Shown here in pieces: positions 1 to 58,627 of a stretch of DNA of 64,000 bases (its first letter is position 1; every line of letters begins with the position of its first letter). The DNA comes from Candidatus Altiarchaeota archaeon (GTDB lineage: Archaea; Altiarchaeota; Altiarchaeia; IMC4; SCGC-AAA252-I15). The stretch is taken from the NCBI GenBank assembly GCA_041306075.1, contig JBFYKH010000007.1, positions 8,821 through 72,820 on the forward strand. The letters are read 5' to 3'. The notes beneath the pieces are model-generated. The model was not told the origin of the DNA and did no database searches. It was given only the letters and a program-made list of their open reading frames with translations. Position numbers and translations under genes: made by a program.

Positions 1-403
1 GAAGCCGGTCAGGACGGTCTCCAGGCACAAGATTCCCACATGGGACCTGAAGAAGGGCGAGCCCATCGGATGCAAGGTCACACTCCGCGGGAAAGCGGCG
101 GAGGAGATAATCAAGCGGACGCTCTACGCCAAGAACAACGCGCTCAAGCCCGGGAACTTCGACAGGAACGGCAACGTCTCCTTCGGCATACCGGAGTACA
201 TCGACATACAGGGGCTGAAATACGACCCCGAGATAGGCGTCTTCGGAATGAACGTGAACATAAACCTGGGAAAGCCCGGATACAGCATCCAGCGCCGCGC
301 CCGGAAGCCGTCTAAGGTCCCCTCCTACGCGAGAGTGCAGAGGGAGGAGGCCGTAGAGTTCATGAAAACAAAGTTTGGTGTTAAAATTGAAGAAGAAGAC
401 TGA
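1..403 (+). CDS. rpl5: 50S ribosomal protein L5 (uL5), C-terminal part, 5' end cut by window edge
   Basis: Frame 2 translation ...[18 protein letters not shown]...[28 protein letters not shown]...; stop TGA at 401-403. Confidence 0.8.
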
Positions 404-554
404 ATCCGGCAAGAACAAGAAGGCCTGGGCGAAGAACATCAGCTGTAGCGTGTGCGGCACGAACAAGGGCATGATACACAAATACGGCCTTGAGATATGC
501 AGACGGTGCTTCAGGGAGGTCGCCCAGAGCATAGGATTCAAGAAACTGAGCTAA
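378..554 (+). CDS. rps14: 30S ribosomal protein S14 (uS14, zinc-binding type)
   Basis: Short ORF below the track cutoff: ...[47 protein letters not shown] with two CxxC pairs; start uncertain (GTG at 378 or TTG at 387); overlaps the L5 stop. Confidence 0.7.
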
Positions 555-555
555 A

Positions 556-1161
556 ATGGCAGAGATAAAGCTTTTCGGGAGATGGGACTATAACGTGACG
601 CTCAAAGACCAGGGGATGGCAAGGTACATCTGCCTGAACCCGGTGTACATGCCGCACACGTCCGGCAGGTACATAGGCAAACAGTTCTCGAAGAGCAAGA
701 TGAACGTCGTGGAGCGGCTAGTCAACAAGCTGATGCGCTCCGGCCAGGGCACGAGGAAGGTGGCCGGCCGTTACATCCGGGGCGGCGGCAACACCGGCAA
801 GAAGATGAACGCCCTCAAGATAGTCGAGAATGCGTTCGAGCTGGTGGAGGCGAGGACCAAGAAGAACCCCCTCCAGGTCTTCATAGACGCGATACAGAAC
901 GCGGGACCGCGCGAGGAGACGACCACGATCATATACGGCGGCATAAGGTACCACCAGTCCGTTGACGTTTCGACGCAGAGGCGGGTCGACTTCGCCCTGA
1001 AGTACCTGTCGCTCGGCGCTTTCGCGACGGCGTTCAACAAGAACAAGGCGATAGCGGAGTGCCTCGCCGACGAGATAGTGTGGGCGTCTAATTCTGAGAA
1101 CAAATCGTACGCGATCCAGAGGAAAGAGGAGACAGAGCGGATTGCGCAATCAGCCAGATGA
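556..1161 (+). CDS. rps7: 30S ribosomal protein S7 (uS7)
   Basis: 201 aa; ...NAGPREETTTIIYGGIRYHQSVDVSTQRRVDFALKYLSLGA... is an S7 signature; directly upstream of EF-2 as in the str operon. Confidence 0.9.
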   Translation: MAEIKLFGRWDYNVTLKDQGMARYICLNPVYMPHTSGRYIGKQFSKSKMNVVERLVNKLMRSGQGTRKVAGRYIRGGGNTGKKMNALKIVENAFELVEARTKKNPLQVFIDAIQNAGPREETTTIIYGGIRYHQSVDVSTQRRVDFALKYLSLGAFATAFNKNKAIAECLADEIVWASNSENKSYAIQRKEETERIAQSAR

Positions 1162-1169
1162 GGTAGAAA

Positions 1170-3359
1170 ATGGGCCGTCAAGAGCAGGTAGCGGAAAAGG
1201 TAATGCACGTCGTCAGCGACTTGGACAGGGTTAGGAACATGGGCATAGTCGCCCACATCGACCACGGGAAGACTACGCTCTCCGACAGCCTCCTCGCCAA
1301 CGCGGGGCTCATATCGATGGACAACGCCGGCAAGCAGCTGGCCATGGACTTCCACGAGGACGAGCAGCAGAGGGGAATCACCATCAACGCGGCGAACGTC
1401 TCGATGACCCACGAATACGACGGCAAACAGTTCCTCATCAACATGATAGACACCCCCGGGCACGTCGACTTCGGCGGGGACGTGACGCGAGCCATGCGGG
1501 CCGTCGACGGCGTCGTGGTCGTCGTGTGCGCGGTCGAAGGCGTCATGCCGCAGACCAAGACGGTCCTCAGCCAGGCCCTCAAGGAGCGGTGCAGGCCGGT
1601 CGTCCTCGTCAACAAGGTGGACCGCCTCATAAACGAGCTGAAACTCACACCCGAGGAGCTGCAGAAGAGGCTCCTGAAGATCATAGCGGAAATCAACAAG
1701 ATAGTGCAGATGAAGCAGCCTGAAGGCATAGACTGGCGCGTGGACGTCAACGGCGGCTCGGTCGCGTTCGGAAGCGGCTTCCACAAGTGGGCGATAAACG
1801 TCCCCTACATGAAGAAGACGGGGATAGGATTCGCCGACATCATAAAATACTGCAACGACGGCAACCAGAAGGAGCTCTCGAAGAGGGCGCCCGTCCACAC
1901 AATCATCCTGGACATGGCCGTACGGCATCTGCCGAGCCCCGTCCAGGCGCAGAAGATAAGGATACCGCAGATATGGAAGGGCGACCTCGAAAGCGAAATC
2001 GGAAAGAGCATGATGGCATGCGACTCCAAGGGGAAGGTCGCCATCATGATAACGAACATACAGACGTTCGACAAGCGGGAGGGCGAAGTCGCCACCGGCC
2101 GGATATTCTCCGGCACCGTCAGGGAAGGCCAGGACCTATACCTCGTCAACGGCAAGATGCGCGAGAGGGTCACCCACGTCGGCCTCTACATGGGCGCGTC
2201 AAGGCAGAACGTGGAGGCCATACCCGCAGGCAACATAGTCGCGCTCACCGGCCTCAAGCACGCGTACACCGGCGAGACAGTGTCCGAGGAGGACATAGCA
2301 CCCTTCGAGGCGATACAGCACCACAGCGAGCCGGTCGTCACAGTCGCGGTCGAGGCCAAGCACATGAAGGACCTCCCCCGTGTAATCGAAGTCCTCCGCC
2401 AGGCCGCGAAGGAGGACCCGACGCTGAGGGCAGCCCTCAACGAGGAGACCGGCGAACACCTCCTCTCCGGGATGGGCGAACTCCACCTCGAAGTCATAAC
2501 CAACAGGATAAAGGCGAGCGGCCTCGAGATGGTCGTCTCCCAGCCCATAGTCGTGTACCGGGAGACCATAGACGGGCAGTTCGGCCCGGTCGAAGGGAAA
2601 TCGCCGAACAAGCACAACAAGTTCCTCATGCGCGTCGAACCCCTCGAAGACGAGACGTTCGAGGCCATAAGGGCCGGCAACATCGAGGAGGGACGCCGCA
2701 AGGACCGGAGCAAGGACATATGGCAGACCCTCTACGGCTACGGCATGGAAAAGGAGGAGGCCAAGCGCGTCATAGACGTCTACCACGGCAACATGATGAT
2801 AGACATGACGAAGGGCGTCCAGCACCTCGACGAGGTCATGGAGCTCCTCCTAGACGGATTCGAGAACGTCATGGACAACGGCGCCCTCGCGAAGGAGCCG
2901 ATGACGAAAGTCAAGGTCCTCCTCGAGGACTTGTCGCTACACGAGGACGCCATACACAGGGGGCCCGCGCAGATACTGCCCGCAGTCAAAAACCCCATGT
3001 ACATATGCATACTAAGGAGCAGGCCCGGCCTCCTGGAGCCCATGCAGAACGTGTGGGTCGACGTCCCCCAGCAGTACATGGGCTCCGTCACCCGCGAGAT
3101 GCAGCGCAGGCGCGGCGTCGTGACCAACATGACAGCGAAGGACGAGCTCATGACAATCGAGGCGAAAGTCCCGGTCGGAGAGTCATTCGGCTTCGCAGGC
3201 GACATCAGAAGCGCCACGGAAGGCCACGCGCTCTGGAGCACAGAGAACGCCGGATACGCCAGGCTGCCGACCGAGCTGCAGACCAAGATAGTCTCACAGA
3301 TACGCGACCGCAAGGGCCTCAAGAAGGAGCTCCCGAAGGCGGAGGACTACGCCAACTGA
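1170..3359 (+). CDS. fusA: Elongation factor 2 (aEF-2)
   Basis: 729 aa; N-terminal G domain GIVAHIDHGKTTLSDSLL, DTPGHVDF, NKVDR; full-length archaeal EF-2 architecture. Confidence 0.95.
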   Translation: MGRQEQVAEKVMHVVSDLDRVRNMGIVAHIDHGKTTLSDSLLANAGLISMDNAGKQLAMDFHEDEQQRGITINAANVSMTHEYDGKQFLINMIDTPGHVDFGGDVTRAMRAVDGVVVVVCAVEGVMPQTKTVLSQALKERCRPVVLVNKVDRLINELKLTPEELQKRLLKIIAEINKIVQMKQPEGIDWRVDVNGGSVAFGSGFHKWAINVPYMKKTGIGFADIIKYCNDGNQKELSKRAPVHTIILDMAVRHLPSPVQAQKIRIPQIWKGDLESEIGKSMMACDSKGKVAIMITNIQTFDKREGEVATGRIFSGTVREGQDLYLVNGKMRERVTHVGLYMGASRQNVEAIPAGNIVALTGLKHAYTGETVSEEDIAPFEAIQHHSEPVVTVAVEAKHMKDLPRVIEVLRQAAKEDPTLRAALNEETGEHLLSGMGELHLEVITNRIKASGLEMVVSQPIVVYRETIDGQFGPVEGKSPNKHNKFLMRVEPLEDETFEAIRAGNIEEGRRKDRSKDIWQTLYGYGMEKEEAKRVIDVYHGNMMIDMTKGVQHLDEVMELLLDGFENVMDNGALAKEPMTKVKVLLEDLSLHEDAIHRGPAQILPAVKNPMYICILRSRPGLLEPMQNVWVDVPQQYMGSVTREMQRRRGVVTNMTAKDELMTIEAKVPVGESFGFAGDIRSATEGHALWSTENAGYARLPTELQTKIVSQIRDRKGLKKELPKAEDYAN

Positions 3360-3421
3360 CGTATATATAAGGAACACAACAATAAGTAAAGCTAAATTTA
3401 ACAAATGGAGGATAGGGAAAA

Positions 3422-4693
3422 ATGGCTGACAAACCGCACATGAACCTTGTGTTCATAGGGCACGTGGACCACGGGAAGTCGACGCTCGTCGGCAGGCTCA
3501 TGTACGAGCTCGGCGAGGTCACAGAGCAGCAGATGAAGAACCTCAAGGAAGAGGCTGCGAAGTCCGGCAAGGCGACGTTCGAGTACGCCTGGGTCATGGA
3601 CTCCTTGAAAGAGGAGCGCGAACGCGGAGTCACAATCGACATCGCGCACAAGAAATTCCAGACTCAGAAGAAGTACTTCACCATCATCGACGCCCCAGGC
3701 CACAGGGACTTCGTGAAGAACATGATAACCGGCGCCTCCCAGGCAGACGCGGCCGTCCTGGTCGTCGACGTGCAGAACGGCGTGCAGCCGCAGACGAAGG
3801 AGCACGCATTCCTGTCCAAGACCCTCGGCCTGAAGCAGATGATAATCGCCGTCAACAAGATGGACGCCGTCAAATACGAGGAGGCAAAATACAACAAATG
3901 CGTTGACGACGTCAAAAGCCTGCTGAAGAGCATCGGATACGACGTCAGCAAGATACCCTTCATACCGACCTCCGCATACCAGGGGGACAACCTGAAGACC
4001 AAGAGCGCGAACACCCCCTACTACAAGGGCAACCCGCTCCTGACGGAACTCGACAACCTAGAGGCCCCGGCCAAGCAGACCGACAAGCCCCTGAGGCTGC
4101 CGGTACAGGACGTCTACACCATCACCGGCGTCGGGACAGTCCCCGTAGGCCGCGTGGAGACGGGCGTCATGAAGCCGAACGACAAGATAATCTTCATGCC
4201 GGCGAACGTCACCGGCGAAGTGAAGACCGTCGAGATGCACCACGAGCAGCTGCCGAAGGCAGAGCCCGGAGACAACATCGGATTCAACGTCCGCGGAATA
4301 GGCAAGAACGACGTCAAACGCGGAGACGTGGTCGGACTAGTCTCGAACCCGCCGACGGTGGCGGAGGAGTTCACGGCGAACATCGTCGTCCTCCAGCACC
4401 CGAGCGCGATAACCGTGGGCTACACGCCGGTCTTCCACATACACACCGCCCAGGTCGCAATGGAGTTCATAGAACTCATTAAGACCCTGGACCCGAAGAC
4501 AGGCCAAGTCAAACAGGAGAAGCCCGAATTCCTGAAGGCAGGCGACGTCGCGGTCGTAAGAATCAGGCCCACAAGGCCGACCGTCGTCGAAGCAGCCAAG
4601 GAATTCCCGCCCCTGGGCCGATTCGCAATCCGCGACATGGGCCAGACAGTGGCTGCAGGAATGGTCATAGAGGTGAAGAAGAAGGCGATGTGA
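3422..4693 (+). CDS. tuf: Elongation factor 1-alpha (aEF-1A / EF-Tu)
   Basis: 423 aa; [21 protein letters not shown] motifs; GGAGG RBS upstream. Confidence 0.95.
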
Positions 4694-4733
4694 ACAACAT
4701 CCCTTCCAAACACCCTTTTTTGAAGGCTATAAG

Positions 4734-5042
4734 ATGGAGAAAGCACGAATCATCCTCATAGGAAAGGAAAACAGGATACTGGACGACGTATGCGGCCAGA
4801 TAGTCGAGGTCGCCCAGAAGACCGGGACCAAATTCAGCGGCCCCATACCGATGCCGACCAAGAAGATGAGGGTGACATGCCGTAAGGCCACAAGCGGCGA
4901 CGGCACGGAGACATGGGACCGGTGGGACATGCGCATACACAAGCGCATCATCGACCTCAACGCAAACGAAAGGAGCCTGAGGCAGATAATGCGCATACAG
5001 GTCCCCGACGGCGTGCACATCGAAATCGAGCTGACAAAATAA
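4734..5042 (+). CDS. rps10: 30S ribosomal protein S10 (uS10)
   Basis: 102 aa; MEKARIILIG...IRIHKRIIDL...; canonical position after tuf. Confidence 0.9.
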   Translation: MEKARIILIGKENRILDDVCGQIVEVAQKTGTKFSGPIPMPTKKMRVTCRKATSGDGTETWDRWDMRIHKRIIDLNANERSLRQIMRIQVPDGVHIEIELTK

Positions 5043-5161
5043 AGGATAAACGACGGGGTACGAGGAACCCTATCCTCCAATACCCCGCCGAACCATTCTT
5101 TTAATACAGTAACCCCTTATTATCAACCCTAGACGCCCAACAAACGCTCTAGGACATAAAA

Positions 5162-5220
5162 AGCTCCCCTGGCGTAGACGCCCCAGATGCTTATGCATCG
5201 GGCGCTCCAGCCGGGGAGCT
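5162..5220. other. Palindromic tRNA-like / cloverleaf-like structured element (not a canonical tRNA)
   Basis: AGCTCCCC...GGGGAGCT 8-bp outer stem enclosing two hairpins (GGCG-TAGA-CGCC and CCCAGATGC-TTAT-GCATCGGG); shares the GCTCCC 5' end with the adjacent tRNA-Glu; too short (59 nt) and no T-arm. Confidence 0.3.
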
Positions 5221-5235
5221 GGTAGCATATAATAC

Positions 5236-5310
5236 GCTCCCGTAGTGTAGACCGGCCTATCATTCCGGACTTTCGATCCGGTGACTCGGGTTCAAATCCC
5301 GACGGGAGCA
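5236..5310 (+). tRNA. tRNA-Glu (anticodon UUC)
   Basis: Acceptor GCTCCCG/CGGGAGC, anticodon arm CCGGA-CTTTCGA-TCCGG (UUC), T-arm TCGGG-TTCAAAT-CCCGA, discriminator A; 75 nt. Confidence 0.85.
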
Positions 5311-6028
5311 AGACCCATTAAGGTTAAGAAAAAGAGCAAAGATTATATAGAGGGTTGTCGCTCTACATACCCGATGGAGCAGGCGATATACCCGAACAAG
5401 ACAGGCTTCACAGACTTTAAGACTAGCTTCTTCCAGGACCCCGCGATAACACCAGGCAACCGCGACACCGTCAAACAATTCCTAAAGCTGCACAGTAGCC
5501 TGGGAGTCAAAGAACGCAGGCAGCGTAACCGACCCAGTAAACTAAAGACCATCCTCCAAGACAATGTATTCTCCGGACAAGAGACTCGCTGGAGGGCGTT
5601 CATCTCGTCCTTATCCCACACTGCAAAAATTATTCCTTTATCTCATCCAGTTCTTTCACGAGCATGTGGAACGAACTCTCATCGAACCATAATCTGATGG
5701 CATTTATGCGTGGGGGGGGGGTGTGTCCGTCCCCATCTCATCGCATGATTCCTCCTCGTCCTTGGTTACTACATGGAAGAAGTCAGTGATTAGCGTGTGG
5801 ACTTTACCTGTGAGGTCGTAAGTTTCAACCTCAACCTCTTCGCCGCTTTGTCGTAACTCTATGCCCCTAATGCTTTTCATCTCTCCCCCCAGCTAGGTAT
5901 GCCCTTGACAGCGTATAAACACATGGATTTTAGGACATGAAGACCAATGTTCAAAATCCTAGTCGACCTAGTCGTTGAATGTGCTCGTTGCGTCTAGGCT
6001 GGTGCGCACCTTTTGAACGCTGGGAGAT

Positions 6029-6355
6029 ATGCATAAGGGCTTATTTACCTTAACCCTAATGGATATTATGGCAAATGCGAGAATCAACTACCTTATAGAC
6101 GCCCTACTTGGGTTGAGTTTCTTCATTACTGCTGCGACAAGCGTAATCATATTCCTTTTCCTGCCTTCAGGGGTCCGCCAGGGAGGCTACCAGGAGTTTA
6201 TGGGCATAACCAAAAGCACATATGGCCTTGTGCACACATACGTCGGCCTATTGATGATAGGCCTCTCGCTCGTACATCTTGTGTTGCACTTTGATTGGAT
6301 AGTGTGCATGACTAAAAACCTTTTCAAGAAAACCGGCGAATGTGCTGTAGAGTAA
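6029..6355 (+). CDS. Small polytopic membrane protein (DUF4405-like?)
   Basis: 108 aa, 2-3 hydrophobic helices; lies in the low-GC patch downstream of tRNA-Glu. Confidence 0.45.
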   Translation: MHKGLFTLTLMDIMANARINYLIDALLGLSFFITAATSVIIFLFLPSGVRQGGYQEFMGITKSTYGLVHTYVGLLMIGLSLVHLVLHFDWIVCMTKNLFKKTGECAVE

Positions 6356-6433
6356 TTCCCTGTCGGATTACGTGTTCAAATGCGGGGTTTTTTTTTTAAG
6401 CATGTGGCCCCATACTATTAATGAGGTGTTTTT

Positions 6434-7360
6434 ATGAAACTTATTGCCACAGTTGCTCTGTTGTTTTGTCTTGCGTCCGTCGCATGTGCCATCGGCCCCA
6501 TTGAGGGTCAGGGAACAGGTCAAGGGATTTTGATTCAAGAGGAGACTCAGAACGAGGGCGAAAGCCAGAACCTGACAGTCCAGCAGCAGACTGCTGCCGG
6601 CGCTGGGCAGGGCTCAGGCCAGGGCAGCATGGTCCAGCAGGAGACTCAGAACGCCGGCGAAGGCCAGAATCTGGCCGCCCAGCAGCAGACTGGTGAAGGA
6701 AAAGGCCAGGGCGCAAGTCAAGGCTCCGGTCAAGGCAATGCTGGCGCGGGTCAGGGGGCAGGCCAGTCCAGCATGGTCCAGCAGGAGACTCAGAACGCCG
6801 GCGAAGGCCAGAATCTGGCCGTCAAGCAACAGAGTGGTCAGGGCCAATCCAAGTCTGAGCAGATGGCGCAGGTGAAGCAGACGGTACGGGAGAAGAAGCA
6901 ACAACTGGACCGGGAAGTAGCTGGGATGAACAACAACCGGGACAAGCAGAAGGTGTTCCAGAACCAGAATCAGGTCAGGCTAGCAGTTCATTCCTTATTG
7001 GCGCTAGAAAACTTGACCGGCGGCATAGGCAAGCAGGTTTCACAGATTGCCCGGGAATTCGACAACTCCATACAATCAACGCTCAGGTCCGAGGAGAAGG
7101 TGCAAACTCGCGCAGGCGTGTCCAGATTCTTCTTTGGAGGGGATGAAGAATCCGCAGACGAGATATTGGGTCAGGTTACCCGCAACCAGGCGAGGATACA
7201 GCAGTTGAACCAATTGATGCTGGAGGGCGGCTTAGACGAGGATGTGAAGGCCATGGTGCAGGAGCAGATACGGATAATGCAGCAGGAGCAAGAGCGCCTC
7301 CGGCTGATGGCCCAACAGGAAAAAAATAGCAAAGGCCTCTTTGGCTGGCTGTGGAAATAG
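6434..7360 (+). CDS. Secreted repeat protein (signal peptide, Q/G-rich tandem repeats, C-terminal coiled coil)
   Basis: 308 aa; N-terminal MKLIATVALLFCLASVACA; three copies of ...SMVQQETQNAGEGQNLAAQQQTG... (about 80-bp tandem DNA repeats at 6600-6860). Confidence 0.55.
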   Translation: MKLIATVALLFCLASVACAIGPIEGQGTGQGILIQEETQNEGESQNLTVQQQTAAGAGQGSGQGSMVQQETQNAGEGQNLAAQQQTGEGKGQGASQGSGQGNAGAGQGAGQSSMVQQETQNAGEGQNLAVKQQSGQGQSKSEQMAQVKQTVREKKQQLDREVAGMNNNRDKQKVFQNQNQVRLAVHSLLALENLTGGIGKQVSQIAREFDNSIQSTLRSEEKVQTRAGVSRFFFGGDEESADEILGQVTRNQARIQQLNQLMLEGGLDEDVKAMVQEQIRIMQQEQERLRLMAQQEKNSKGLFGWLWK

Positions 7361-7543
7361 GCCGGTAAACAAGGCCTTAATGTTGGGGCATTGGGGAAGA
7401 ACCTTGGGATTGGGGGTATCGGAAGGGTTATTCATCCGATGACTGTGGGGAAGTATGTGCTCTGAGGAACTGCACTCCGAAAGGTGTTCCCGAAGGGAGT
7501 TATTCCCCTAGTAGGAGTTGATACAAAATAAACCCGGCTGAAG

Positions 7544-8077
7544 CTAGGAGGATACACTTAAATACTGGTATTTGTCGTAGCCGTTTTTCTCCCCGGACGG
7601 CCTGCATGCGCCGTTAACGCACCCGTAGGGGCAGTTGACCATCGCGTATCTGGCTTGGTTGCGCCAGCAGTACCATTTTTTGAGCAAGGCGGAGTTTACG
7701 CACTTGTCCATGTTGCCGTCCACCGTCCCCCGTGTCTGGGTGTTCCTGTACTGGTCTGTGGCTGTGCATTCGTATCCGCGCGCCCAATTGTTAGCGGTCT
7801 CCAGCGTGCATTCGCCCGCCAGGCATCCAAGCGGGCACTTGCGGACTTTCGATGCGGCGAACCCGTTTTCGCAGGACCACTTCCTCACGTGCGTGGAGTT
7901 CACGCACGAGTCATAATGTCTTCCATACGCATCCGTGGCATAGCCCCAGACGCTGTACTCCAAGGCGCTGCCGGTCGAGCTGCACACCCGGGTAATAATC
8001 GACGTGGAGTAGGACATGGCGGTGCCCGACATCAAGGCAGCCATCAAAACAGCCGCACAGACGCTGAACCGCCCCAT
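7544..8077 (-). CDS. Secreted Cys-rich protein with two repeated Cys-rich modules
   Basis: 177 aa; signal peptide; two modules ending ...CP(L/Y)GC(L/V)(A/N)G(E/A)C; same motif as the C-terminus of the 11580..12635 protein. Confidence 0.55.
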   Translation of the reverse strand: MGRFSVCAAVLMAALMSGTAMSYSTSIITRVCSSTGSALEYSVWGYATDAYGRHYDSCVNSTHVRKWSCENGFAASKVRKCPLGCLAGECTLETANNWARGYECTATDQYRNTQTRGTVDGNMDKCVNSALLKKWYCWRNQARYAMVNCPYGCVNGACRPSGEKNGYDKYQYLSVSS

Positions 8078-8176
8078 CGTTTACTCTTGTACTACCGGGT
8101 TAATAAAAGCGGTAAACCATTGGAAACTCGATGCTGCCTGAGCGCCATTCTCTCTCGTGCTTTAACCGGATGCAGG

Positions 8177-9885: not shown

Positions 9886-10584
9886 TCAGCCGGATTTAGC
9901 CATGGCTATGTGGGTCTCTACGAGTCTGCGCAGGCCTTCGAGCCTCGCTGCGTCGTTGGCGGCCTGGTCGCCGTATCTCGCCGTGTCTTTGGCCTCTATG
10001 GCCTGTTTGAACCGGTCGTATGCTGGGCTTCCCTCGGCCAAGTCCATGGGCGCTATCCCTTGCCTTCTTAGGTGCGCGTTGGCTATGGAGGCGGCCGTCC
10101 TCTTGTTGCGGTCCTTGAAGGCGTGGCTTCCCAGTATCATGGAGTGCATGAACCGGGCCACGTCCTCTCCGACTCCCCCGGGGCCGGGGTAGTTGAGGAT
10201 GCCCAGGCTCTCCTCCAGGTGGGCCGCCGCCGCCTCCGGCGTTGTTGCCGGGAATTTCCGTATTATGTCGCCCATCATGTCGTCTGTGGGGTCAGCCCTC
10301 AGGTTTGCGGACTCGGTCCTGTACTGCCCCCAGTCTGTCCTGGGAGCAAATTGTGTGCCGCCGGACCTGTAGTGCAGGGCGTTGAGTATCCTGGCGTCGG
10401 CCTCCGTGAACGGCCTAGTCTCTCGGACGAGGTAGGCTTCGTATCCGGCGGGGGTCGTCTGAGATATCGCCTCCAGGTCCCGGCCGCCGCTCAGCCATTT
10501 CCGATGGGCGTCCTCGTTCACCTCCATGGGCCGCTCCAGCCTGTCAGCCGGCGCCTCGTCCGGGGCTCTGCGCTTCTGGGGCAT
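9886..10584 (-). CDS. Fic/Doc family protein with Doc-like motif
   Basis: 232 aa; HAFKDRNKRTAASIAN matches the Fic/Doc core HxFx(D)(G/A)N(G/K)R in its Doc-like NKR variant. Confidence 0.45.
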   Translation of the reverse strand: MPQKRRAPDEAPADRLERPMEVNEDAHRKWLSGGRDLEAISQTTPAGYEAYLVRETRPFTEADARILNALHYRSGGTQFAPRTDWGQYRTESANLRADPTDDMMGDIIRKFPATTPEAAAAHLEESLGILNYPGPGGVGEDVARFMHSMILGSHAFKDRNKRTAASIANAHLRRQGIAPMDLAEGSPAYDRFKQAIEAKDTARYGDQAANDAARLEGLRRLVETHIAMAKSG

Positions 10585-10704
10585 GGCAAGGTATACTGGA
10601 CCCTATTGGGTTAAAAACGGCCGACGGCCCGGGCATGGGATATTGCTCGACGGTTTAGCCGTATTTTTATCCGCAGCAACCAACAATCTTTAGCGGTCTT
10701 TTTT

Positions 10705-10905
10705 ATGAAGTGCCCCCATTGCGGTTCCGGATTCAGCGGGGAGGAGCTTTTAGCGAACAACGTCTTCCTGGCCGGGCGGAGCGCAAGTCCGGGCCTCCTC
10801 AGCAGTAAGGGGCTTGTGCTGCCACATTACGTATGGGTCTGCCCATCATGCGACAAGGTGCTGGCAATCACGGCCTGCGACATAGCAAATGAGCCTACGT
10901 TCTGA
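10705..10905 (+). CDS. Small zinc-ribbon protein
   Basis: 66 aa; CPHC...CPSC. Confidence 0.4.
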   Translation: MKCPHCGSGFSGEELLANNVFLAGRSASPGLLSSKGLVLPHYVWVCPSCDKVLAITACDIANEPTF

Positions 10906-10906
10906 G

Positions 10907-11470
10907 CTACGTGCCTCCTATACCCCCCACTTTGAAAGTGTCCTTCACCCCCCTCAGGTATTCTCCGACCGGCATGTCGTTCATCGGGACCCTCATGTCT
11001 GTTTGGCTGGTCTTCTCGGGCGACCAGAAGAATATGATCCTTTGCTGGCCGGTGGTCGTCACGTTGATGTCGTAGTGCGAGATTATCGAGTGGAACCTCG
11101 GCGGATTGTCCTTGAGGACGTACCTCACCGGGACGCCTTCGAAAGCCAGCTCCATGTCATACGTTCCGTCCGGGGGGACTGTGCCCCCGTCGCCTCTGCC
11201 CTCGACGACGACACTGGAGCCGTCCTCCAGAATCCCTGTCAAGACGGCCTTGTCGACCCTGAACCTGAGCTCTCCCGCCCCGCTGTTGTTTATCCGGACC
11301 ATGGCGGTGGCGTTCACCTTCATCTCGATGACGCCGGAGCTGATTTCATAGGGGTCTGACACCGAGTAGTCGACGCTGTATGACGGCCCCTTAACGCAGC
11401 CGCCCAGGAGTGCGATTGCCAGGAAGGCCAGTATGCACGCCGCCAGGGTGTAAGCCGGTTTAATCTTCAC
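10907..11470 (-). CDS. Putative lipoprotein (LEA14/NDR1-like beta-sandwich?)
   Basis: 187 aa; signal peptide with lipobox-like LLGGC. Confidence 0.45.
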   Translation of the reverse strand: MKIKPAYTLAACILAFLAIALLGGCVKGPSYSVDYSVSDPYEISSGVIEMKVNATAMVRINNSGAGELRFRVDKAVLTGILEDGSSVVVEGRGDGGTVPPDGTYDMELAFEGVPVRYVLKDNPPRFHSIISHYDINVTTTGQQRIIFFWSPEKTSQTDMRVPMNDMPVGEYLRGVKDTFKVGGIGGT

Positions 11471-15995: not shown

Positions 15996-16164
15996 AGCGC
16001 GTGCTTATAACCGTTTGCAGGCGCTACTTCAGTATGAACCCGCTCCAGAAGATGAACCACGTCCAAACGGCAAGGAACAGCAATAACATGAAGAACGTAA
16101 GCAAGTCCTTGCGGCTTATGTCGTCGCGCAACTCCAGTTTCATGTTAAACTAAGTGTCCTAGCC

Positions 16165-16230
16165 GGTATTTAAATGCGCCCCCCATCCTGTTGGCTTATA
16201 AACCCATTTTTCCCAATATATTGGTGGGAT
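16165..16230 (+). promoter_or_regulatory. AT-rich putative promoter region (TATA-like boxes) upstream of the first pilin-like gene
   Basis: TTTAAAT (16169), TTATAAA (16196) and AATATATT (16218) in an otherwise GC-rich context; GGTGA RBS 8 nt before the ATG at 16266. Confidence 0.25.
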
Positions 16231-16265
16231 GGGGCTTTAGCCCTGTCTAATGAGGTGAGAATAAG

Positions 16266-16604
16266 ATGGAAAAGAAGTTGTTTTTTAGTGGATTTGTCCT
16301 GCTATTCTTGGCGGGACTGGTTGCAGCGCAGGCATCAGTTGCTCAGAGCGCTGTAGACGCGATTTGCGCGGTGCTGGAGAACATAACGTTTATGCTGTAT
16401 ATGATTACAGCAGCGGTCGGCATCGTGGTGATTGTGCTGCAGGGTATCAAGTGGGCTGGTTCAGCCGAGGACCCTGGAGCAAGGAAGTCTGCGAAGCAGG
16501 GCATCATCCATGCAGTCATTGGCATGATTATCGTGCTCTTGGCAGTATGGATTGTCGCGCTAGTATTCGGACAGGATGAGTGCGACGTCGCCGCCGTCCT
16601 ATAA
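16266..16604 (+). CDS. VirB2/TrbC-like pilin-sized membrane protein, paralogue 1
   Basis: 112 aa; signal peptide ending ...AAQASVA, then two hydrophobic helices separated by the short loop QGIKWAGSAEDPGARKSAKQGIIHAVIG; same architecture and motif as the 29011 and 29365 products. Confidence 0.6.
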   Translation: MEKKLFFSGFVLLFLAGLVAAQASVAQSAVDAICAVLENITFMLYMITAAVGIVVIVLQGIKWAGSAEDPGARKSAKQGIIHAVIGMIIVLLAVWIVALVFGQDECDVAAVL

Positions 16605-16610
16605 GCGGAT

Positions 16611-16666
16611 AATCTTTTTTGTGCCGGACCCGGTCCGGCACAACCTACTTTTTTCTTATTTTCTCA
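16611..16666 (+). terminator. Hairpin plus oligo-T terminator/attenuator after pilin-like gene 1
   Basis: T6, perfect hairpin GTGCCGGAC-CCG-GTCCGGCAC (16621-16641), then CTTTTTTCTTATTTTCTC. Confidence 0.5.
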
Positions 16667-16706
16667 ACAAAACGGCTTTTTTTCCTCATTTTACCATTAA
16701 CTTTTG

Positions 16707-19700
16707 ATGCTTGGGAGCCGTCTGTGCCATAGGCTGGCGACCGTCGTAGTAGTGTCCATACTACTCTCATACGCTGCCTCCTATGTTCTCGCAGGCAAGC
16801 CGGGGGAGCGCGGGCAGGAGGGCGCCGGCTGGTGGGACCAAGTCGGCTCCTGCGTCAAGCGCGAATCCACCTGGACGTATTTTATCCCCATTTACGGGCA
16901 GATTAAGGCATTTGGCACCCTGTTCTGTATCGGGAAGGTCACCGTAATATCGGTCGTCGTGAAGGGTTTATGGGCGATACTGAAGGACCTCATAATCGAA
17001 GGCTTCACCAAGCTATTGATACTGTTCCTGGGGTTCCTCGAGTCGGGGCTCACAGCGACCCCTGACTGGGACAGCGATGCCTACAACAATCTCTACGGCA
17101 TCGTGCTTACGATTATCACGCCGCTCCTCTTCGTGCAGATAATCGTTGTCGCAGGGTACCTGATGTTCTCGTCCATAGACCCCGGCCAGCGTTCCCGGGC
17201 GAAGACGATGCTCACCCGGCTCCTGATGTCGCTCGTCCTGGTCGGGATAGCCAAACCGGCCTACATACTGCTGTTTGACCTCATCAGCGGCCCAAACAGC
17301 ATAACCTCGGCAATATTCGACGCGACATATAACATAATCACGGGCGGGCCGCCCGGGGCTGGGGCGATAACCGCGATGGTCGCGATTTTCGCAGGCATAA
17401 TCGTGTTCGCCGTTTTCAGCGGCGTGGGCCTCACCCTCCTCGGGTGGGTGGTGGCGTATCTCCTCATAGTGGTGTTCATAGTGTACATCCGCTACTCCAT
17501 GATAGTCATGCTCTACATCATATTCCCCTTCACCATATTCCTCTACTACTTCGAGTACACCCGGAGCGTGGGCGGGGACTTCCTCATGAAGACGCTCATG
17601 TGGCTCATAATGGGCCCGGTGATGGCGCTTGTGGTCTCCGTGACTGTCATCTCGCTCGTCGTCTTCCTCGGGGGCGGCGACATGGGGGTGGCCCAAAACA
17701 TAGCGACGAGCCTCGAGGACGTGAAGGAAGACGGCGTGGTGGACGAGGGGGCGATAACCGCCATCGAAGGCCAGGTCAATCTCCCGGCCGGCAGTCTCCC
17801 TGCCGGCCAGGCCGAGCCGCCGTTCACCGAAGCCCTCCTGGCCAAGGTCATAGCATTGTTCATATTCCTCGGCGGCGTAGTGGCGTTGGTCGCCGTGCCG
17901 CTCGTCATGTCCTCGCTCATGCACTGGGTGGGCGGCGCAATGGCCGCGTCCGGGATGATGGGCATCTCGGCAGGCGGCCCCCTGGCGGAGCGTTGGAAGC
18001 AGCTCAGCCTCGTCACGGCCGGCGAGCTGATGATGGGGCGCGGGTCCCAGAGCCTCGTGTCCGCAGCCACGAACATATCCTACATGAACCGTGACGCGGT
18101 CATCGACGGGCAGGGGATGCTGCCCGGCCTCTTCGGCAGCGCGAAGACCGAGGCTTCCATGGCGTCGAAGGGTTCAGCCAGCAGGGGATTCATGGGCAAT
18201 CTTGCGGCCGCATTCAGCGACCACTCGTCGCCGGCCACTAAGGACTTCTATGACCGCTCAAGAGGCGCGGTTTACGGGACTCCCATGTCCGGCGGCCATC
18301 AGGGCGTGGAGTCCGGGATGTCGCAGCGGCCCCCCTTATCCGCCGGGAACAGGCCTCAGGACGGGTCATACGCCGCCGCAGGCGACGGCCGGGGTATGAG
18401 GGTGAATCCGGAGTACCTGAAGGACGACGGCCCCCCAGGTTCGCGTTCCCAGGGCGCTGGCATGCTGAATGCGCCGGCGTCTGAGCTGATTGGCGCGGAC
18501 GGGAAGCCGATGCCTACGTCGACCACCCATTACGACCAGCGTGCCGGGCAGGCCATGGTCACCTCAAGTGAGTCGCAATGGGGAGTGCTGCCGGCATTCA
18601 GGGTGATGGAGCGGATTGACAGCGTTTTCAAGGGCATGGGCGAGGTCAGGAAGGGCGTCTCCGCGGTGTTCAGGCAGAAGGGCAGGCGCCTTGAAGGCGT
18701 GAAGCTCGCCGGCCGCGGCGCCGGGAAGATTCTGGTTTCCGCCGTCCCCATCAGCCCGTTCATGCCTGTGAGGATGATGGGGCGGGTCATCTACACGCTC
18801 ACGCCCGTCCAGCTTCCTCCCGCATTGCAGCCCTACGGCTTCGCCATCGGCGGCGCGATGAAGGGCATCGGCTTAAGGCAGGTCTTCATGCGCACCAAGT
18901 GGGCTGAGCAGATGGGCGTCTACAGGAAAGCATACAAGAACCGGGTGGAGGACCTTGACAAGCTGGATGAAACCCATAAAACCGAGGTCGGGAAGCGGAA
19001 GGCGGGCGTAGACTACTCAAAGGAGGATGAGACGTACCGGCAGAAGCGCGGCAAGGTTCTCTCCGAGATGGGCCGGCTGGAGGACGGGGTGGTCAAGACC
19101 ATGGACCGGATGGGTTTCGGGAAGACTCCGTTCGCCGACGTGCTGCCCGAGAACCCCGACTACGTCTCCTACCTCAAGCATCTTGAGTTTCTGAAGAAGC
19201 AGCGCGACCAGACAGCGGAATCGAACCCGGCGGTTGCCGAACACAGCCTATACGACGCATACCTCCGGAAGTCCAGGGTCACCGAGAAGGACCACCTGAT
19301 GCAGCCGGCCTCGACGCTCTGGGAGAAGCACGAGAAGGGCGAGCTCAAGGGGAAGGATAAGGAGGAGTACGATAAGCTCGCGAAGTCTGCGCAGGCGTTA
19401 TCTGCGGTCCAGTTCGCCGACAACTCCAAGGACAAGTCGGGAGCGGCCGGAAGGCAGGAGAAGGCGCGTTTCATGGCCGCGGGCCTCATGAAGGCGATGG
19501 GCGTGGAGGATTCCATGGAGCAGCGGAGGTTCCTTGAAGCCCACACAGGCCTTCTGGAATTCGACAGGAATGGCGCGCTCACTAGGCAGAGGTATGTGCG
19601 CCTCGACGGCGCCATGGCGCAGGGCGCTCACAACAGGGAGTTCATATACCAGGAGACTTACGACAACAAGGGCGAGCCGCTCGTGAAGGCCGAGTCGGTG

Positions 19701-22019
19701 AACCTCCCCCTCCACAGGGACTCCGACGGCAACGTCTACGCGAGCCCGTATGACATGAAGTACCTGACCTCGTCGATGCGGCATGACGACTGGGCGAGGA
19801 ACAAGGCGCTGGCCAGCGGTTTTGCACTGAAGAACCCGATGCGGTTCACATTCAACTACTCCGACCAGACCGGCCGGTACGTCTCCGGCCAAGGCCAGGC
19901 GGATGCCGTGGCTGAGGTGGCATACGACCCGAAGGAGGGGGTTCTCCTCGGCCCTGACGGCGAACATGCCACCTTGGTCGGGCAGGGGGTGCAGACCCAC
20001 ATGGGCGACCGCGTACTCTTCGTCAGGACCAGCGAGTGGGCCGGGAAAATATATGCTCCCGAGGGGCGGGAGGCGACAGCCGAAGAGTCTAAGGCGGTGG
20101 CTGAAAAAATAAAGGCCGGGGAGAGAGTCGAAGGGTTCGTCGTCCAGGACTGGCTTGACAAGACGAAGTTCGTAGCCCCTACCGAGATGCGTCAGGGAGC
20201 TGACGGCGGAGTTCAATTCGGGTATAAGATATGGAGGCACTACGGCTACAACACCATCCCCACGGCCGACAAGAAGGGGCGCCCGGACATGTCGGCCCCG
20301 ACCCTCATAGGCCGCGACGGCATGGTGTCCGCCCTGAAGGGGATGCCGACCCACGAGGAGCTTAACGGGCCCATGACCCGGGAGATGAGGGGGAAGATGG
20401 AGGAAATCCTGCTCATCAACGGACGGAAACTGGACTACGGCACCCTCACCGACGATGCACTGCGGGAGGAGATGCGGAAGCTCAAGGACTCCAAGAACAA
20501 GGAGTTCGAGAAAGACTTAGACAAGGGGGCTGAGGGCCACAGGATGAAGGCCGGGGCTGAGGCGGCAAGTCGCCTCTCTGGCGCCGGCGTAGCCGGAATC
20601 AGCGCAGAGCAGGCGGCCGGCGTCGACGGCATGTTCGAAATTCACAAGGAGTACATAGCGGCTGCCAAGAACATAACCCTGGCTGGAACCAGATGGGGGT
20701 CATCGACGGGCCTGACCGATAGTGGGATACAGGCAATCAAGGCGTCAGTCCAGAAGACCGCGGCCGAGCACGGGGTCAGGGTTGCGAGCGTAAGCTTCTA
20801 CGACAGCGGCGACACGGCAAGCGACCCGAACCCTATGCTGGTCAGGTTCGAAGACGGGGCCCACCTTCAGGTGAATCTGGCATACATCGCGAATAAGGCC
20901 CGGGCGAGGATAGGCGTCCACGTCGCAGGGAGGGACAGGTCGATAGAGGCCATCAAAGCCGACAGGGCAAAGGCTATAGCGGCCATCGAAGGCGACAAAT
21001 CCAAGCCAAAAGCGGACCGGAAGAAAGCGATAGAGGCGGTTAACGACAAGAAAAAAGAGGAACTAGCGGCCGTAGATCGCGCATTCCACCAGGCAGTCTT
21101 CAAGGACATCGGCGACGGCCTTATACAAAAAGACCTGGATGAAGGGCTGGCTGATTTCCTGAAGCGGGCTGACGGCCACCTCAACCTCCACGAGCTGGCC
21201 GGCCACAACGCGGCGGAGAAGCATGTCGACGCGGTCATGAAGGCGACGAAGGAGAATTATGGCGCGGGGGGCAGGGGCTGGGCCCACAGATTGCTCATGT
21301 TCCGGATGACGAAGCGCAACATGACATTGGCCTCGAAGGAGGTCATAGCGGACGGCATAGTCCCCGACAAGATGACGATGCCGGACGGCACAGAAAAGGA
21401 TAATCCCTCGTTGATAAGGCTCTACGTCGGGGAAAAACAGGACGGCAGCGACGGCCTCATCGGCGAAATACGGAAGTACAAGCGCCTCGGCAGGCCGCAC
21501 CTGATAAACTTCGCGAGGGCTTCAGCCATCGCCAAATTCAGGGGCCTGAAGACGGATAATGGAGCCGATGTCTCCGCCATGTTCGACGAGGCATTGAAGG
21601 GGCAGAACTCGGAAGGAAAGGACCGGCTCACGAGCGGCCAGGCGAAAACATACGAGAAACTGAAGGCGTACTTCGCGGAGCAGGCCGGCCACGTTAAACG
21701 GGAACGCGACGCAATCTACAAAAAGACCGCCGAGGCGGGGAAGGCCAGGCAGGCGAAAATGAGCGGGGCCCAAAGCGGGCCGCAACAACAGAAGGCCCAG
21801 GACGGCCCGGTTGCGGGTGACCTCTCCCCGGAGAAGCGGCCTCAGGCGGAGGCGGGCAAGCGCGGCCAGATACCCCATCACGAGCCTCCTCACGACCACG
21901 ACGCCCCGGGAGCTGGCGGCGGGCACCATGGCGAGGGCCCTGCATCCGGCCCTGACGGGCAAGGGCCTGGAGACGGCGGAGACGGCGGCGGAGACGGCGG
22001 AGGAGACGGTGGAGACTGA
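16707..22019 (+). CDS. Giant membrane protein: N-terminal VirB6/TrbL-like polytopic domain (about 430 aa) plus about 1300-aa charged hydrophilic tail ending in a [DGG]n repeat
   Basis: 1771 aa (ATG at 16707; the track starts at TTG 16704); 8+ TM helices in the first 430 aa; long K/E/D/R-rich region; C-terminus ...HHEPPHDHDAPGAGGGHHGEGPASGPDGQGPGDGGDGGGDGGGDGGD. Confidence 0.55.
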   Translation: MLGSRLCHRLATVVVVSILLSYAASYVLAGKPGERGQEGAGWWDQVGSCVKRESTWTYFIPIYGQIKAFGTLFCIGKVTVISVVVKGLWAILKDLIIEGFTKLLILFLGFLESGLTATPDWDSDAYNNLYGIVLTIITPLLFVQIIVVAGYLMFSSIDPGQRSRAKTMLTRLLMSLVLVGIAKPAYILLFDLISGPNSITSAIFDATYNIITGGPPGAGAITAMVAIFAGIIVFAVFSGVGLTLLGWVVAYLLIVVFIVYIRYSMIVMLYIIFPFTIFLYYFEYTRSVGGDFLMKTLMWLIMGPVMALVVSVTVISLVVFLGGGDMGVAQNIATSLEDVKEDGVVDEGAITAIEGQVNLPAGSLPAGQAEPPFTEALLAKVIALFIFLGGVVALVAVPLVMSSLMHWVGGAMAASGMMGISAGGPLAERWKQLSLVTAGELMMGRGSQSLVSAATNISYMNRDAVIDGQGMLPGLFGSAKTEASMASKGSASRGFMGNLAAAFSDHSSPATKDFYDRSRGAVYGTPMSGGHQGVESGMSQRPPLSAGNRPQDGSYAAAGDGRGMRVNPEYLKDDGPPGSRSQGAGMLNAPASELIGADGKPMPTSTTHYDQRAGQAMVTSSESQWGVLPAFRVMERIDSVFKGMGEVRKGVSAVFRQKGRRLEGVKLAGRGAGKILVSAVPISPFMPVRMMGRVIYTLTPVQLPPALQPYGFAIGGAMKGIGLRQVFMRTKWAEQMGVYRKAYKNRVEDLDKLDETHKTEVGKRKAGVDYSKEDETYRQKRGKVLSEMGRLEDGVVKTMDRMGFGKTPFADVLPENPDYVSYLKHLEFLKKQRDQTAESNPAVAEHSLYDAYLRKSRVTEKDHLMQPASTLWEKHEKGELKGKDKEEYDKLAKSAQALSAVQFADNSKDKSGAAGRQEKARFMAAGLMKAMGVEDSMEQRRFLEAHTGLLEFDRNGALTRQRYVRLDGAMAQGAHNREFIYQETYDNKGEPLVKAESVNLPLHRDSDGNVYASPYDMKYLTSSMRHDDWARNKALASGFALKNPMRFTFNYSDQTGRYVSGQGQADAVAEVAYDPKEGVLLGPDGEHATLVGQGVQTHMGDRVLFVRTSEWAGKIYAPEGREATAEESKAVAEKIKAGERVEGFVVQDWLDKTKFVAPTEMRQGADGGVQFGYKIWRHYGYNTIPTADKKGRPDMSAPTLIGRDGMVSALKGMPTHEELNGPMTREMRGKMEEILLINGRKLDYGTLTDDALREEMRKLKDSKNKEFEKDLDKGAEGHRMKAGAEAASRLSGAGVAGISAEQAAGVDGMFEIHKEYIAAAKNITLAGTRWGSSTGLTDSGIQAIKASVQKTAAEHGVRVASVSFYDSGDTASDPNPMLVRFEDGAHLQVNLAYIANKARARIGVHVAGRDRSIEAIKADRAKAIAAIEGDKSKPKADRKKAIEAVNDKKKEELAAVDRAFHQAVFKDIGDGLIQKDLDEGLADFLKRADGHLNLHELAGHNAAEKHVDAVMKATKENYGAGGRGWAHRLLMFRMTKRNMTLASKEVIADGIVPDKMTMPDGTEKDNPSLIRLYVGEKQDGSDGLIGEIRKYKRLGRPHLINFARASAIAKFRGLKTDNGADVSAMFDEALKGQNSEGKDRLTSGQAKTYEKLKAYFAEQAGHVKRERDAIYKKTAEAGKARQAKMSGAQSGPQQQKAQDGPVAGDLSPEKRPQAEAGKRGQIPHHEPPHDHDAPGAGGGHHGEGPASGPDGQGPGDGGDGGGDGGGDGGD

Positions 22020-57934: not shown

Positions 57935-57968
57935 GCGGGTTTATTTTTCCCTAATCTAATAGACGACT

Positions 57969-58319
57969 GTGGCTTTGTGGGATTGGTTCTTTTCTGATGA
58001 GGCTGGTGGCCGGGAGGTCTGGGTGAAGGTATGCCCTGAATGCCACAGCACGGACGTGACCAGCCGGGGGGGAATATCCAGGACTGCGCTCAGCCCCAAC
58101 TGGATATGCCTAAACTGCGGCTTCCAGAGCGGCTCATTCCCAGAGTTCCTATCAGAAGACGTGAAAAAAGTCGCCCTGCCGGAAAGCGAATCACGGCGGC
58201 GATTCATACCATCAAGAATGCCGTTGACTGCCGACGGCCCTAAGAAGACAACTGTGGCAAAACGCCCTCTACTGTTCATAATCCTCCTAATCATCCTACT
58301 ATCGCTGCTTCTACGATAA
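57969..58319 (+). CDS. Zinc-ribbon protein with C-terminal TM anchor
   Basis: 116 aa; CPECHS...CLNCG; C-terminal LLFIILLIILLSLLL. Confidence 0.45.
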   Translation: MALWDWFFSDEAGGREVWVKVCPECHSTDVTSRGGISRTALSPNWICLNCGFQSGSFPEFLSEDVKKVALPESESRRRFIPSRMPLTADGPKKTTVAKRPLLFIILLIILLSLLLR

Positions 58320-58552: not shown

Positions 58553-58627
58553 TGGTCCCATCGAGATTTGAACTCGAGACCTTCCGATTATCAGTCGGAC
58601 GCTCTAACCAGTCTGAGCCATGGGACC
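58553..58627 (-). tRNA. tRNA-Ile (anticodon GAU)
   Basis: Minus strand: GGTCCCA-TG-GCTC-AGACTGGTTA-GAGC-G-TCCGA-CTGATAA-TCGGA-AGGTC-TCGAG-TTCAAAT-CTCGA-TGGGACC-A; perfect cloverleaf. Confidence 0.85.

Follow-up and report, generated by a model that had tools for sequence, protein, structure and literature searches.

A probable integrative-element remnant with a truncated tyrosine integrase at the 3' end of tRNA-Glu(UUC) in an Altiarchaeota contig

Bacterial tRNA-linked genomic islands carry decayed integrases, such as the P4-like int pseudogenes found in pathogenicity islands. We describe here an archaeal locus of similar appearance, a patch of low GC content that follows the gene for tRNA-Glu(UUC) in a 64,000-nucleotide stretch of contig JBFYKH010000007.1 (assembly GCA_041306075.1, Candidatus Altiarchaeota archaeon). 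This whole stretch is called the window and all coordinates refer to it. The patch is very probably the immobilized remnant of an integrative element that was inserted at the 3' end of the tRNA gene by a classical tyrosine integrase.

Two arrangements of integrase gene and attachment (att) site in archaea serve as points of reference. In type I, or suicidal, integrases the att site lies inside the open reading frame (ORF), and integration leaves the gene as int(N) and int(C) halves; the classical type II integrases differ in this respect (PMC8371274). Rules for the sublocations used within tRNA genes are those of Williams (2002), as cited in PMC8371274. An earlier reading of the window (the original prediction) had placed a degraded integrated element immediately 3' of tRNA-Glu and had likened its geometry to that of a split type I integrase of the SSV kind. 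The element itself is borne out by an N-terminal integrase fragment comprising codons 1-61; the geometry is not, and the arrangement is that of the type II enzymes.

The integrase stub and the left junction

The features around the junction are as follows, with the strand in brackets.

5236-5310 (+): tRNA-Glu(UUC) gene, intact and without an intron; the presumed attB target, regenerated as the left junction
5294-5310 (+): att core AAATCCCGACGGGAGCA (attL), the last 17 nt of the tRNA gene
5281-5697 (+): mechanical ORF, with a GTG start inside the tRNA gene and a TGA stop at 5695-5697
5320-5373 (+): conserved upstream region of the integrase gene; its TATA-like box (TTATATA, 5343-5349) is 25 nt from the ATG; putative promoter of a leaderless transcript
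5374-5556 (+): remnant of a classical tyrosine integrase gene (codons 1-61), identified by tblastn, blastp and a family hidden Markov model (HMM)
5557-5697 (+): tail without integrase homology, in which the ORF runs on to a fortuitous TGA; a deletion or rearrangement junction lies near 5557

The target gene is complete. As originally predicted, tRNA-Glu(UUC) occupies 5236-5310, where it was called by both ARAGORN and Rfam (59.7 bits), and an ORF does begin within it. The GTG start of this ORF is a mechanical artefact, since the tRNA-Glu frame is free of stop codons (as it is in the related loci L054 and L003) and homology to integrases starts at the ATG at 5374.

This homology was seen only by translated comparison with loci from related archaea that were anchored on the gene for S10; a word-indexed protein search with the integrase fragment gave no match. 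The best match is the 423-residue integrase of one such locus, L047. Residues 1-61 of this protein align with 5374-5556 in tblastn (39% identity, E = 8e-13), the product of the ORF aligns with it over 79 residues in blastp (42% identity, E = 1e-19) and tblastx of the window against L047 gives E = 1e-16. The product also matches the integrases of L004 (E = 5e-5) and L005 (E = 7e-4). The family HMM was built from 121 members and was run on the six-frame translation of the window. Its best match there is the same ORF, over HMM positions 2-63 and aligned from the Met at 5374; this ATG corresponds to the first residue of the L047 protein and to HMM position 2. A comparison of the ORF product with integrases, recommended with the original prediction, thus returned N-terminal homology.

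The intact relatives show what has been lost. They belong to PF00589, are about 400 residues long and have a SAM-like N-terminal domain and a C-terminal zinc ribbon; among Pfam families, with E up to 1, the full-length proteins match PF00589 and SAM-like N-terminal domains only. The L047 integrase is uninterrupted while integrated and its R, K, HxxR, W and Y residues are visible in the sequence. In the window, no integrase similarity was found past 5556 (HMM positions above 63, L047 residues above 61) in any frame of the 64 kb, and an intact catalytic domain (R..K..HxxR..W/H..Y) is absent from the same 64 kb. Since the similarity ends at 5556, the ORF is a pseudogene that keeps 61 of about 420 codons, and the tyrosine-recombinase gene next to the target junction is present as a remnant only. 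With no catalytic domain anywhere in the window, the element is a fossil and not an active member of its family.

Position and spacing are shared with the intact relative. Both the window and L047 have the att core AAATCCCGA(C/A)GGGAGCA, followed by a spacer with a conserved TATA-like box and then by the ATG; the spacer is 63 nt in the window and 70 nt in L047, where it is measured from a second copy of the core. The DNA alignment with L047 conserves ATTATATAGA and CATACCC-ATGGAG, and the tblastx match reaches back to 5320. Because the integrase's own ATG is 63 nt downstream of the tRNA gene, the att core lies outside and upstream of the integrase ORF.

The end of the tRNA gene is also where conservation stops. 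The closest metagenomic contig, L046 (Ga0315287_10000955), has an S10 that is 98% identical and aligns with positions 1-5310 of the window at 91.6% nucleotide identity. The alignment ends exactly at base 5310 and the two sequences diverge from 5311. The genes downstream of tRNA-Glu in the window are common to no relative examined among the S10-anchored loci, so that the patch is not conserved in synteny, a point on which the original prediction had asked for a check.

We propose that the attP of the element, situated just upstream of the integrase promoter, recombined with the last 17 nt or so of tRNA-Glu(UUC), and that the tRNA gene was regenerated in the process. The integrase would have been an archaeal tyrosine enzyme of the classical kind, which does not split itself, with its gene just inside the element's left end. 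A later internal deletion, with one end near 5557, may have cost the integrase gene about 360 codons, which specified the core-binding and catalytic parts, and probably took most of the element with it. What is left would be stranded cargo, namely the 58-residue ORFan, the DUF4405 membrane protein and the secreted protein with repeats; a 12-nt copy of the att core further downstream would be the decayed right junction. Lacking a recombinase, the remnant cannot excise alone. In principle, a related element could supply an integrase in trans, which would act on attL and any surviving attR.

Composition, probable cargo and putative extent of the remnant

Downstream of the stub the following features are found, for which the GC content at third codon positions (GC3) is given where it applies.

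5704-5880 (-): acidic 58-residue ORF (14 D/E, 5 K/R), GC3 0.58; annotated as a gene in both the NCBI and the Logan record
5712-5721 (+): G10 homopolymer, which codes for PPP near the C-terminus of the 58-residue ORF
6029-6355 (+): DUF4405 small membrane protein (PF14358, 48 bits), GC3 0.55
6388-6397: T10 run, terminator-like, after the DUF4405 gene
6434-7360 (+): secreted 308-residue protein with a signal peptide, three Q/G-rich repeats and a coiled-coil-like C-terminal half, GC3 0.67
7488-7499 (+): TCCCGAAGGGAG, a direct 12-nt copy of the att core; candidate decayed attR
7544-8077 (-): secreted Cys-rich protein with 13 Cys residues, of native GC3 (0.78)

The composition of the patch is foreign from 5311 to about 7500. 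The GC content of 5311-6433 is 0.4675 against a window mean of 0.608 (s.d. 0.037 for stretches of equal length), and no other such stretch in the 64 kb is lower. The tetranucleotide distance is the highest in the window at 5001-7500, with z values of 4.1-4.65; z remains at 4.1 across 6001-7500 and falls to about 0 at 7501. Composition is therefore not uniform, in line with the original prediction. GC3 is 0.55 in the integrase stub, compared with a median of 0.835 over the 61 ORFs kept for the window. Clearly native genes of at least 140 codons have GC3 values of 0.71-0.92, while a few short or doubtful ORFs in the set of 61 are lower; the DUF4405 and repeat-protein genes fall below every clearly native gene of that length. 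The patch had been predicted to extend to 8100. Its low-GC character holds, with the minimum of the window at 5311-6433, but the atypical composition ends near 7500. Native composition is back at 7544 and continues for 56 kb (GC3 0.70-0.84 in the genes that follow the Cys-rich gene), and the Cys-rich gene and everything beyond look native. In L003, a relative without an integrase at that place, a domain homologue of the Cys-rich protein is encoded downstream of tRNA-Glu. The description of the patch as gene-poor fits 5311-6028 only; beyond that point there are the DUF4405, repeat and Cys-rich genes, the last two of which had been correctly anticipated as encoding secreted proteins at 6434 and 7544.

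Two further local dips in GC content occur in the window, both with small ORFs. One, at 16001-17000 (ORF 16266-16601, GC3 0.61), lies just upstream of a 1771-residue ORF at 16704-22016; the other, at 57959-58294 (GC3 0.63), is near a tRNA-Ile gene at 58553-58627. At 9886-10584 on the minus strand there is a gene of native composition for a 232-residue protein with weak similarity to Fic/Doc (Pfam E = 0.042; PHROG Doc-like toxin E = 9e-5), for which no antitoxin was identified.

The right-hand limit of the element depends on how the candidate attR is judged. The 12-nt sequence TCCCGAAGGGAG carries the A variant found in the tRNA-Glu of L046, L047 and L001. The pattern TCCCGAMGGGAG matches only the tRNA gene and 7488-7499, with 0.07 matches expected per window. 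The copy is in the same orientation as the core and sits in the convergent intergenic region 7361-7543, where GC3 switches from 0.67 to 0.78; as a whole this region folds no better than shuffled sequences. We consider the chances roughly evenly balanced that 7488-7499 is a decayed attR, which would delimit a remnant of about 2.2 kb (5311-7499). Another candidate, a direct match of 19 in 22 positions to the anticodon arm (5263-5284) at 7839-7860, was judged to be due to chance; it lies inside the intact Cys-rich gene of native composition.

The contents of the patch were compared with Pfam, PHROGs, NCBIfam and PADLOC; DUF4405 was the only assignment and no defence system was found. TRF detected no tandem array, and scans for sigma-70 promoters and intrinsic terminators are uninformative for an archaeon. 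The secreted protein, whose three Q/G-rich repeats of about 105 nt each span 6496-6843, is probably cargo. Its length varies between populations, because in L045, an independent assembly from another sample (SRR28346261), 45 nt of the GQG-rich linker are missing from the gene (indel 6695-6738). The DUF4405 protein is also probably cargo, and possibly the product of a resident gene. The 58-residue ORF had been noted earlier as a 57-residue acidic ORF at 5715-5885; we place it at 5704-5880. The purine-rich sequence GGGGGGAGAG immediately precedes its ATG, and a TTTATA motif lies about 35 nt upstream. Searched exhaustively with phmmer against 1.84 billion representative proteins, the ORF matched nothing but itself; it is likely to be either element cargo or a junk ORF.

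Several observations weigh against an element with this content. No viral or plasmid hallmark gene is left. Searches of phage and plasmid collections and of IMG/VR gave no match to 5311-7543, and no relative of the L047 integrase, of DUF4405 or of the 58-residue ORF was found in IMG/VR. No full duplicate of the att site was found in the window, either with a 21-mer and a 16-mer at up to three mismatches or with all k-mers of at least 11 nt from 5200-5420, and a local alignment of 5270-5325 with all other parts of the window gave, for the tRNA 3' half, no better match than shuffled sequences do; none of these searches exceeded chance. There is no direct repeat of att of 14 nt or longer in the window, where relatives show copies of 14-18 nt, so that the duplicate of the tRNA 3' portion originally sought is reduced to the 12-nt copy. 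This copy was recognized post hoc, and its sequence can fold into a small TCCC-GAA-GGGA hairpin. In L060/L061 a protein 54% identical to the DUF4405 protein is encoded 3.9 kb downstream from S10, and further homologues occur among chromosomal metal-transport genes (P0122, 61% identity); in view of these chromosomal contexts the gene may be resident and not cargo. Finally, two distant members of the integrase family, P0009 and P0010, are not beside tRNA-Glu, so that specificity for this site is not family-wide. In their own contexts (L103-L105) these two integrases are found in low-GC elements with several small ORFs and an MmeI-like type IIG restriction-modification enzyme.

The main alternative is a much smaller remnant, in which the element is represented by about 5311-5700 (att, promoter and integrase fragment), perhaps to about 6000, the DUF4405 and repeat proteins are resident and the match at 7488 is due to chance. 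The ordinary chromosomal setting of the DUF4405 homologues, the shortness of the att copy and its post hoc discovery agree with such a limit, as does the presence of secreted surface proteins after tRNA-Glu in integrase-free relatives (L003). Nevertheless, we regard it as unlikely. The two resident genes would have to have GC3 values outside the native range, the tetranucleotide anomaly persists through 6001-7500 and disappears from 7501, and the directly oriented 12-mer is placed exactly at this switch in composition. We therefore retain the larger remnant, extending to about 7500, as the preferred reading.

The G10 tract offers a different view of the patch. The run had been reported as G10/C10 within 5711-5724 and as prone to frameshifts; it consists of exactly ten G residues at 5712-5721. 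If the tract made the 58-residue gene a phase-variable, slipped-strand switch, this might be the functional point of the patch, and a version with 11 C residues would extend the ORF to 83 residues with a plausible helical tail, RINAIRLWFDESSFHMLVKELDEIKE. A G10 run also occurs 178 nt 3' of the intact L047 integrase. Such a switch is highly improbable: the number of G10 runs is at chance level (0.54 expected per window, with at least one in 36 of 100 shuffles), the ORF is without homologues and the flanks of the tracts in the window and in L047 have no similarity. In L045, which is 99.5% identical to the window over 5687-6694, G8TG replaces G10 by a G-to-T substitution that preserves length and frame; there is thus no evidence of slippage, as far as one independent Logan assembly can tell. 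The occurrence of G10 in both the window and L047 is treated here as a coincidence.

Among 102 fetched loci, other G or C runs of nine or more are found only at L047 12434-12443 and L096 10546-10555, both just after an S10-tRNA locus. The former is at the border of very AT-rich cargo; the latter, in a distant archaeon, is 140 nt after a tRNA-Ser gene.

An assembly chimera, in which low-GC DNA from another organism was misjoined at the conserved tRNA, is hardly credible: related contigs do often end at or just after the tRNA or integrase (L046, L015, L087, L009 and L018), so that assemblers evidently struggle at the locus, but a chimera would need two joins because native composition resumes at 7544 for 56 kb, the spacing of tRNA end, TATA box and integrase matches the independent L047 contig and the independent contig L045 confirms 5687-6997.

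The tRNA-Glu site and its relatives

The tRNA gene follows an archaeal str-type ribosomal operon at the start of the window.

556-1161: S7
1170-3359: aEF-2
3422-4693: aEF-1alpha
4734-5042: S10

Searches anchored on S10 place the source organism among Altiarchaeota-like archaea, with 83% S10 identity to the closest species-representative genome. Exact-sequence look-ups with S10, the repeat protein, the Cys-rich protein and a HEAT protein matched no record, and no allele with an empty site was recovered. An Rfam scan of the window gave two tRNAs only.

Among 97 S10-anchored loci searched with the family HMM, at least 11, from related Altiarchaeota, have integrase copies, intact or fragmentary, directly 3' of tRNA-Glu. 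The C-terminus points toward the tRNA in L004, L005, L009, L018 and L088; the N-terminus does so, as in the window, in L015, L047, L054, L063, L080 and L087, of which L063 and L080 are fragments like that described here. The occupant of the site varies even between close relatives. In L046 a different integrase-like start (…DDIYHTRRTFER) lies 79 nt after the tRNA, just before the end of the contig; with this and the divergence at 5311, near-identical backgrounds carry different occupants. In L047, too, the integrase allele at the site differs from that of the window. In L004 the GC content falls from about 0.55 to 0.35-0.48 after tRNA-Glu and the integrase and remains low for at least 9.6 kb, which encode secreted proteins and a subtilase.

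Exact direct copies, 14-18 nt long, of the last 17 nt of the tRNA gene are found downstream of it in 14 loci, often several in a row. Taken together with the integrases in both orientations, they identify tRNA-Glu after S10 as a recurrent attachment site in Altiarchaeota-like archaea. The copies are located at 11804, 12543, 13391 and 13556 in L001, at 2546, 2638 and 2709 in L048, at 10898 in L047 and at 981 in L053, with others at +162 in L025/L077/L078 and +882 in L013/L065/L066. The arrays bound remnants of 70-900 bp and bear the signature of serial integration and decay.

Some further observations concern the same locus in the relatives. In L005 (10730-11849) a gene pair, HATPase_c-like and DUF4325 (STAS-like), lies between tRNA-Glu and the integrase and looks like cargo of a defence or signalling type. 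Many relatives (L001, L002, L004, L005, L008, L012, L025 and others) have an intron of about 40-140 nt in tRNA-Glu at the canonical 37/38 site, equivalent to 5275/5276 of the window; on account of this intron ARAGORN misses the gene in them. It is absent from the window, L003, L046 and L047. The nearest genome representatives have tandem units of about 140-150 bp upstream of tRNA-Glu, each with a copy of the tRNA 5' half (GCTCCCTTAGTGTAGA…ACCGGCCTATCATACCGGAC) whose D-loop region is interrupted by about 50 nt of inserted GC-rich sequence. They are found at 10384-10712 in L001 and at 10637-10735 and 10788-10886 in L002, where the real tRNA follows at about 10963-11142; the window has none. These units may be scars left by integrases directed at the 5' half, or they may be split tRNA genes or tRNA pseudogenes.

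A bolder proposal, which we consider very unlikely, would make tRNA-Glu at the end of the str operon a much-used landing pad in Altiarchaeota for an undescribed family of non-viral integrative elements that shuttle secreted or surface-protein cargo and leave arrays of att scars. The promoter-bearing stub would then have been retained because its N-terminal domain binds att or arm sites and so prevents or tunes renewed integration by related elements. The preferred reading is more modest: an ordinary genomic scar in a little-studied archaeal group. For the window its consequence is mainly one of annotation. The ORF at 5281-5697 should be read as a truncated integrase pseudogene that begins at 5374, and a horizontally acquired remnant should be annotated from 5311 to about 7500. 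A 2026 survey found no proviruses in 92 Altiarchaeota genomes (PMC13573593). As a recurrent site in such a lineage, the locus is a convenient anchor for mining its mobile elements and for tracking the turnover of surface proteins between strains.

Comparison with known systems

A first comparison is with the classical type II archaeal integrases of the pNOB8, SNJ2 and PYG1 types (PMC8371274). As in these systems, attP flanks the integrase gene instead of lying within it, insertion is at the 3' end of a tRNA gene that is thereby restored, and the intact relatives have the catalytic PF00589 domain. The att core of 17 nt (T-arm and acceptor 3' strand) is comparable to the 13 bp att of SNJ2 (PMC8371274). 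Unlike the classical elements, the window keeps 61 codons only, so that no recombinase activity is possible. The family is also distant from what has been deposited, sharing only about 23-33% identity with any integrase of an archaeal virus. The closest matches, at 29-33% identity, come from archaeal pleomorphic proviruses (Geoglobus, Archaeoglobus) and a Methanomicrobiales tailed virus; they include Geoglobus acetivorans pleomorphic virus 1, ThalV2 and a Methanomicrobiales caudovirus.

A second comparison is with XerA, the chromosomal archaeal dif recombinase (PDB entries 4a8e and 5hxy), which is both the closest solved structure, alongside XerD, and the closest NCBIfam model for the intact relatives. 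The match to the XerA model scores 93 bits against a cutoff of 220, and the family differs in having an extra N-terminal region and the C-terminal zinc ribbon. Because of this low score, and because the presence and orientation of the genes vary beside tRNA-Glu, with att repeats, we assign the family to mobile-element integrases and not to Xer.

The SSV1-type (type I) integrases share with the window an N-terminal integrase fragment beside an archaeal tRNA gene, and here an ORF that opens inside the tRNA continues into sequence homologous to integrases, so that 5281-5697 could be taken for an int(N) half that reads out of the tRNA. That the integrase was split by its own integration is, however, extremely improbable. 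Membership of the SSV type fails on all three of the defining features tested: the att core is outside the ORF, with homology starting at the integrase's own Met behind a TATA box; no int(C) fragment exists in the 64-kb window; and the protein belongs to another family, PF00589 of the XerA/XerC-like kind. The same layout accompanies an uninterrupted gene in L047, and the open tRNA frame recurs in other loci.

The bacterial tRNA-linked islands have the same anatomy. The window has in common with them the use of a tRNA 3' end, an int pseudogene followed by low-GC cargo, a distal repeat that is degenerate or missing, and a locus that varies between strains; it differs in its archaeal host and integrase family and in the very small size of the remnant, perhaps about 2.2 kb. 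Islands of this kind, linked to a tRNA gene and bearing a classical integrase in decay, are well known; the mild novelty here lies in the lineage of the host and in the clarity of the tRNA-Glu hotspot within it.

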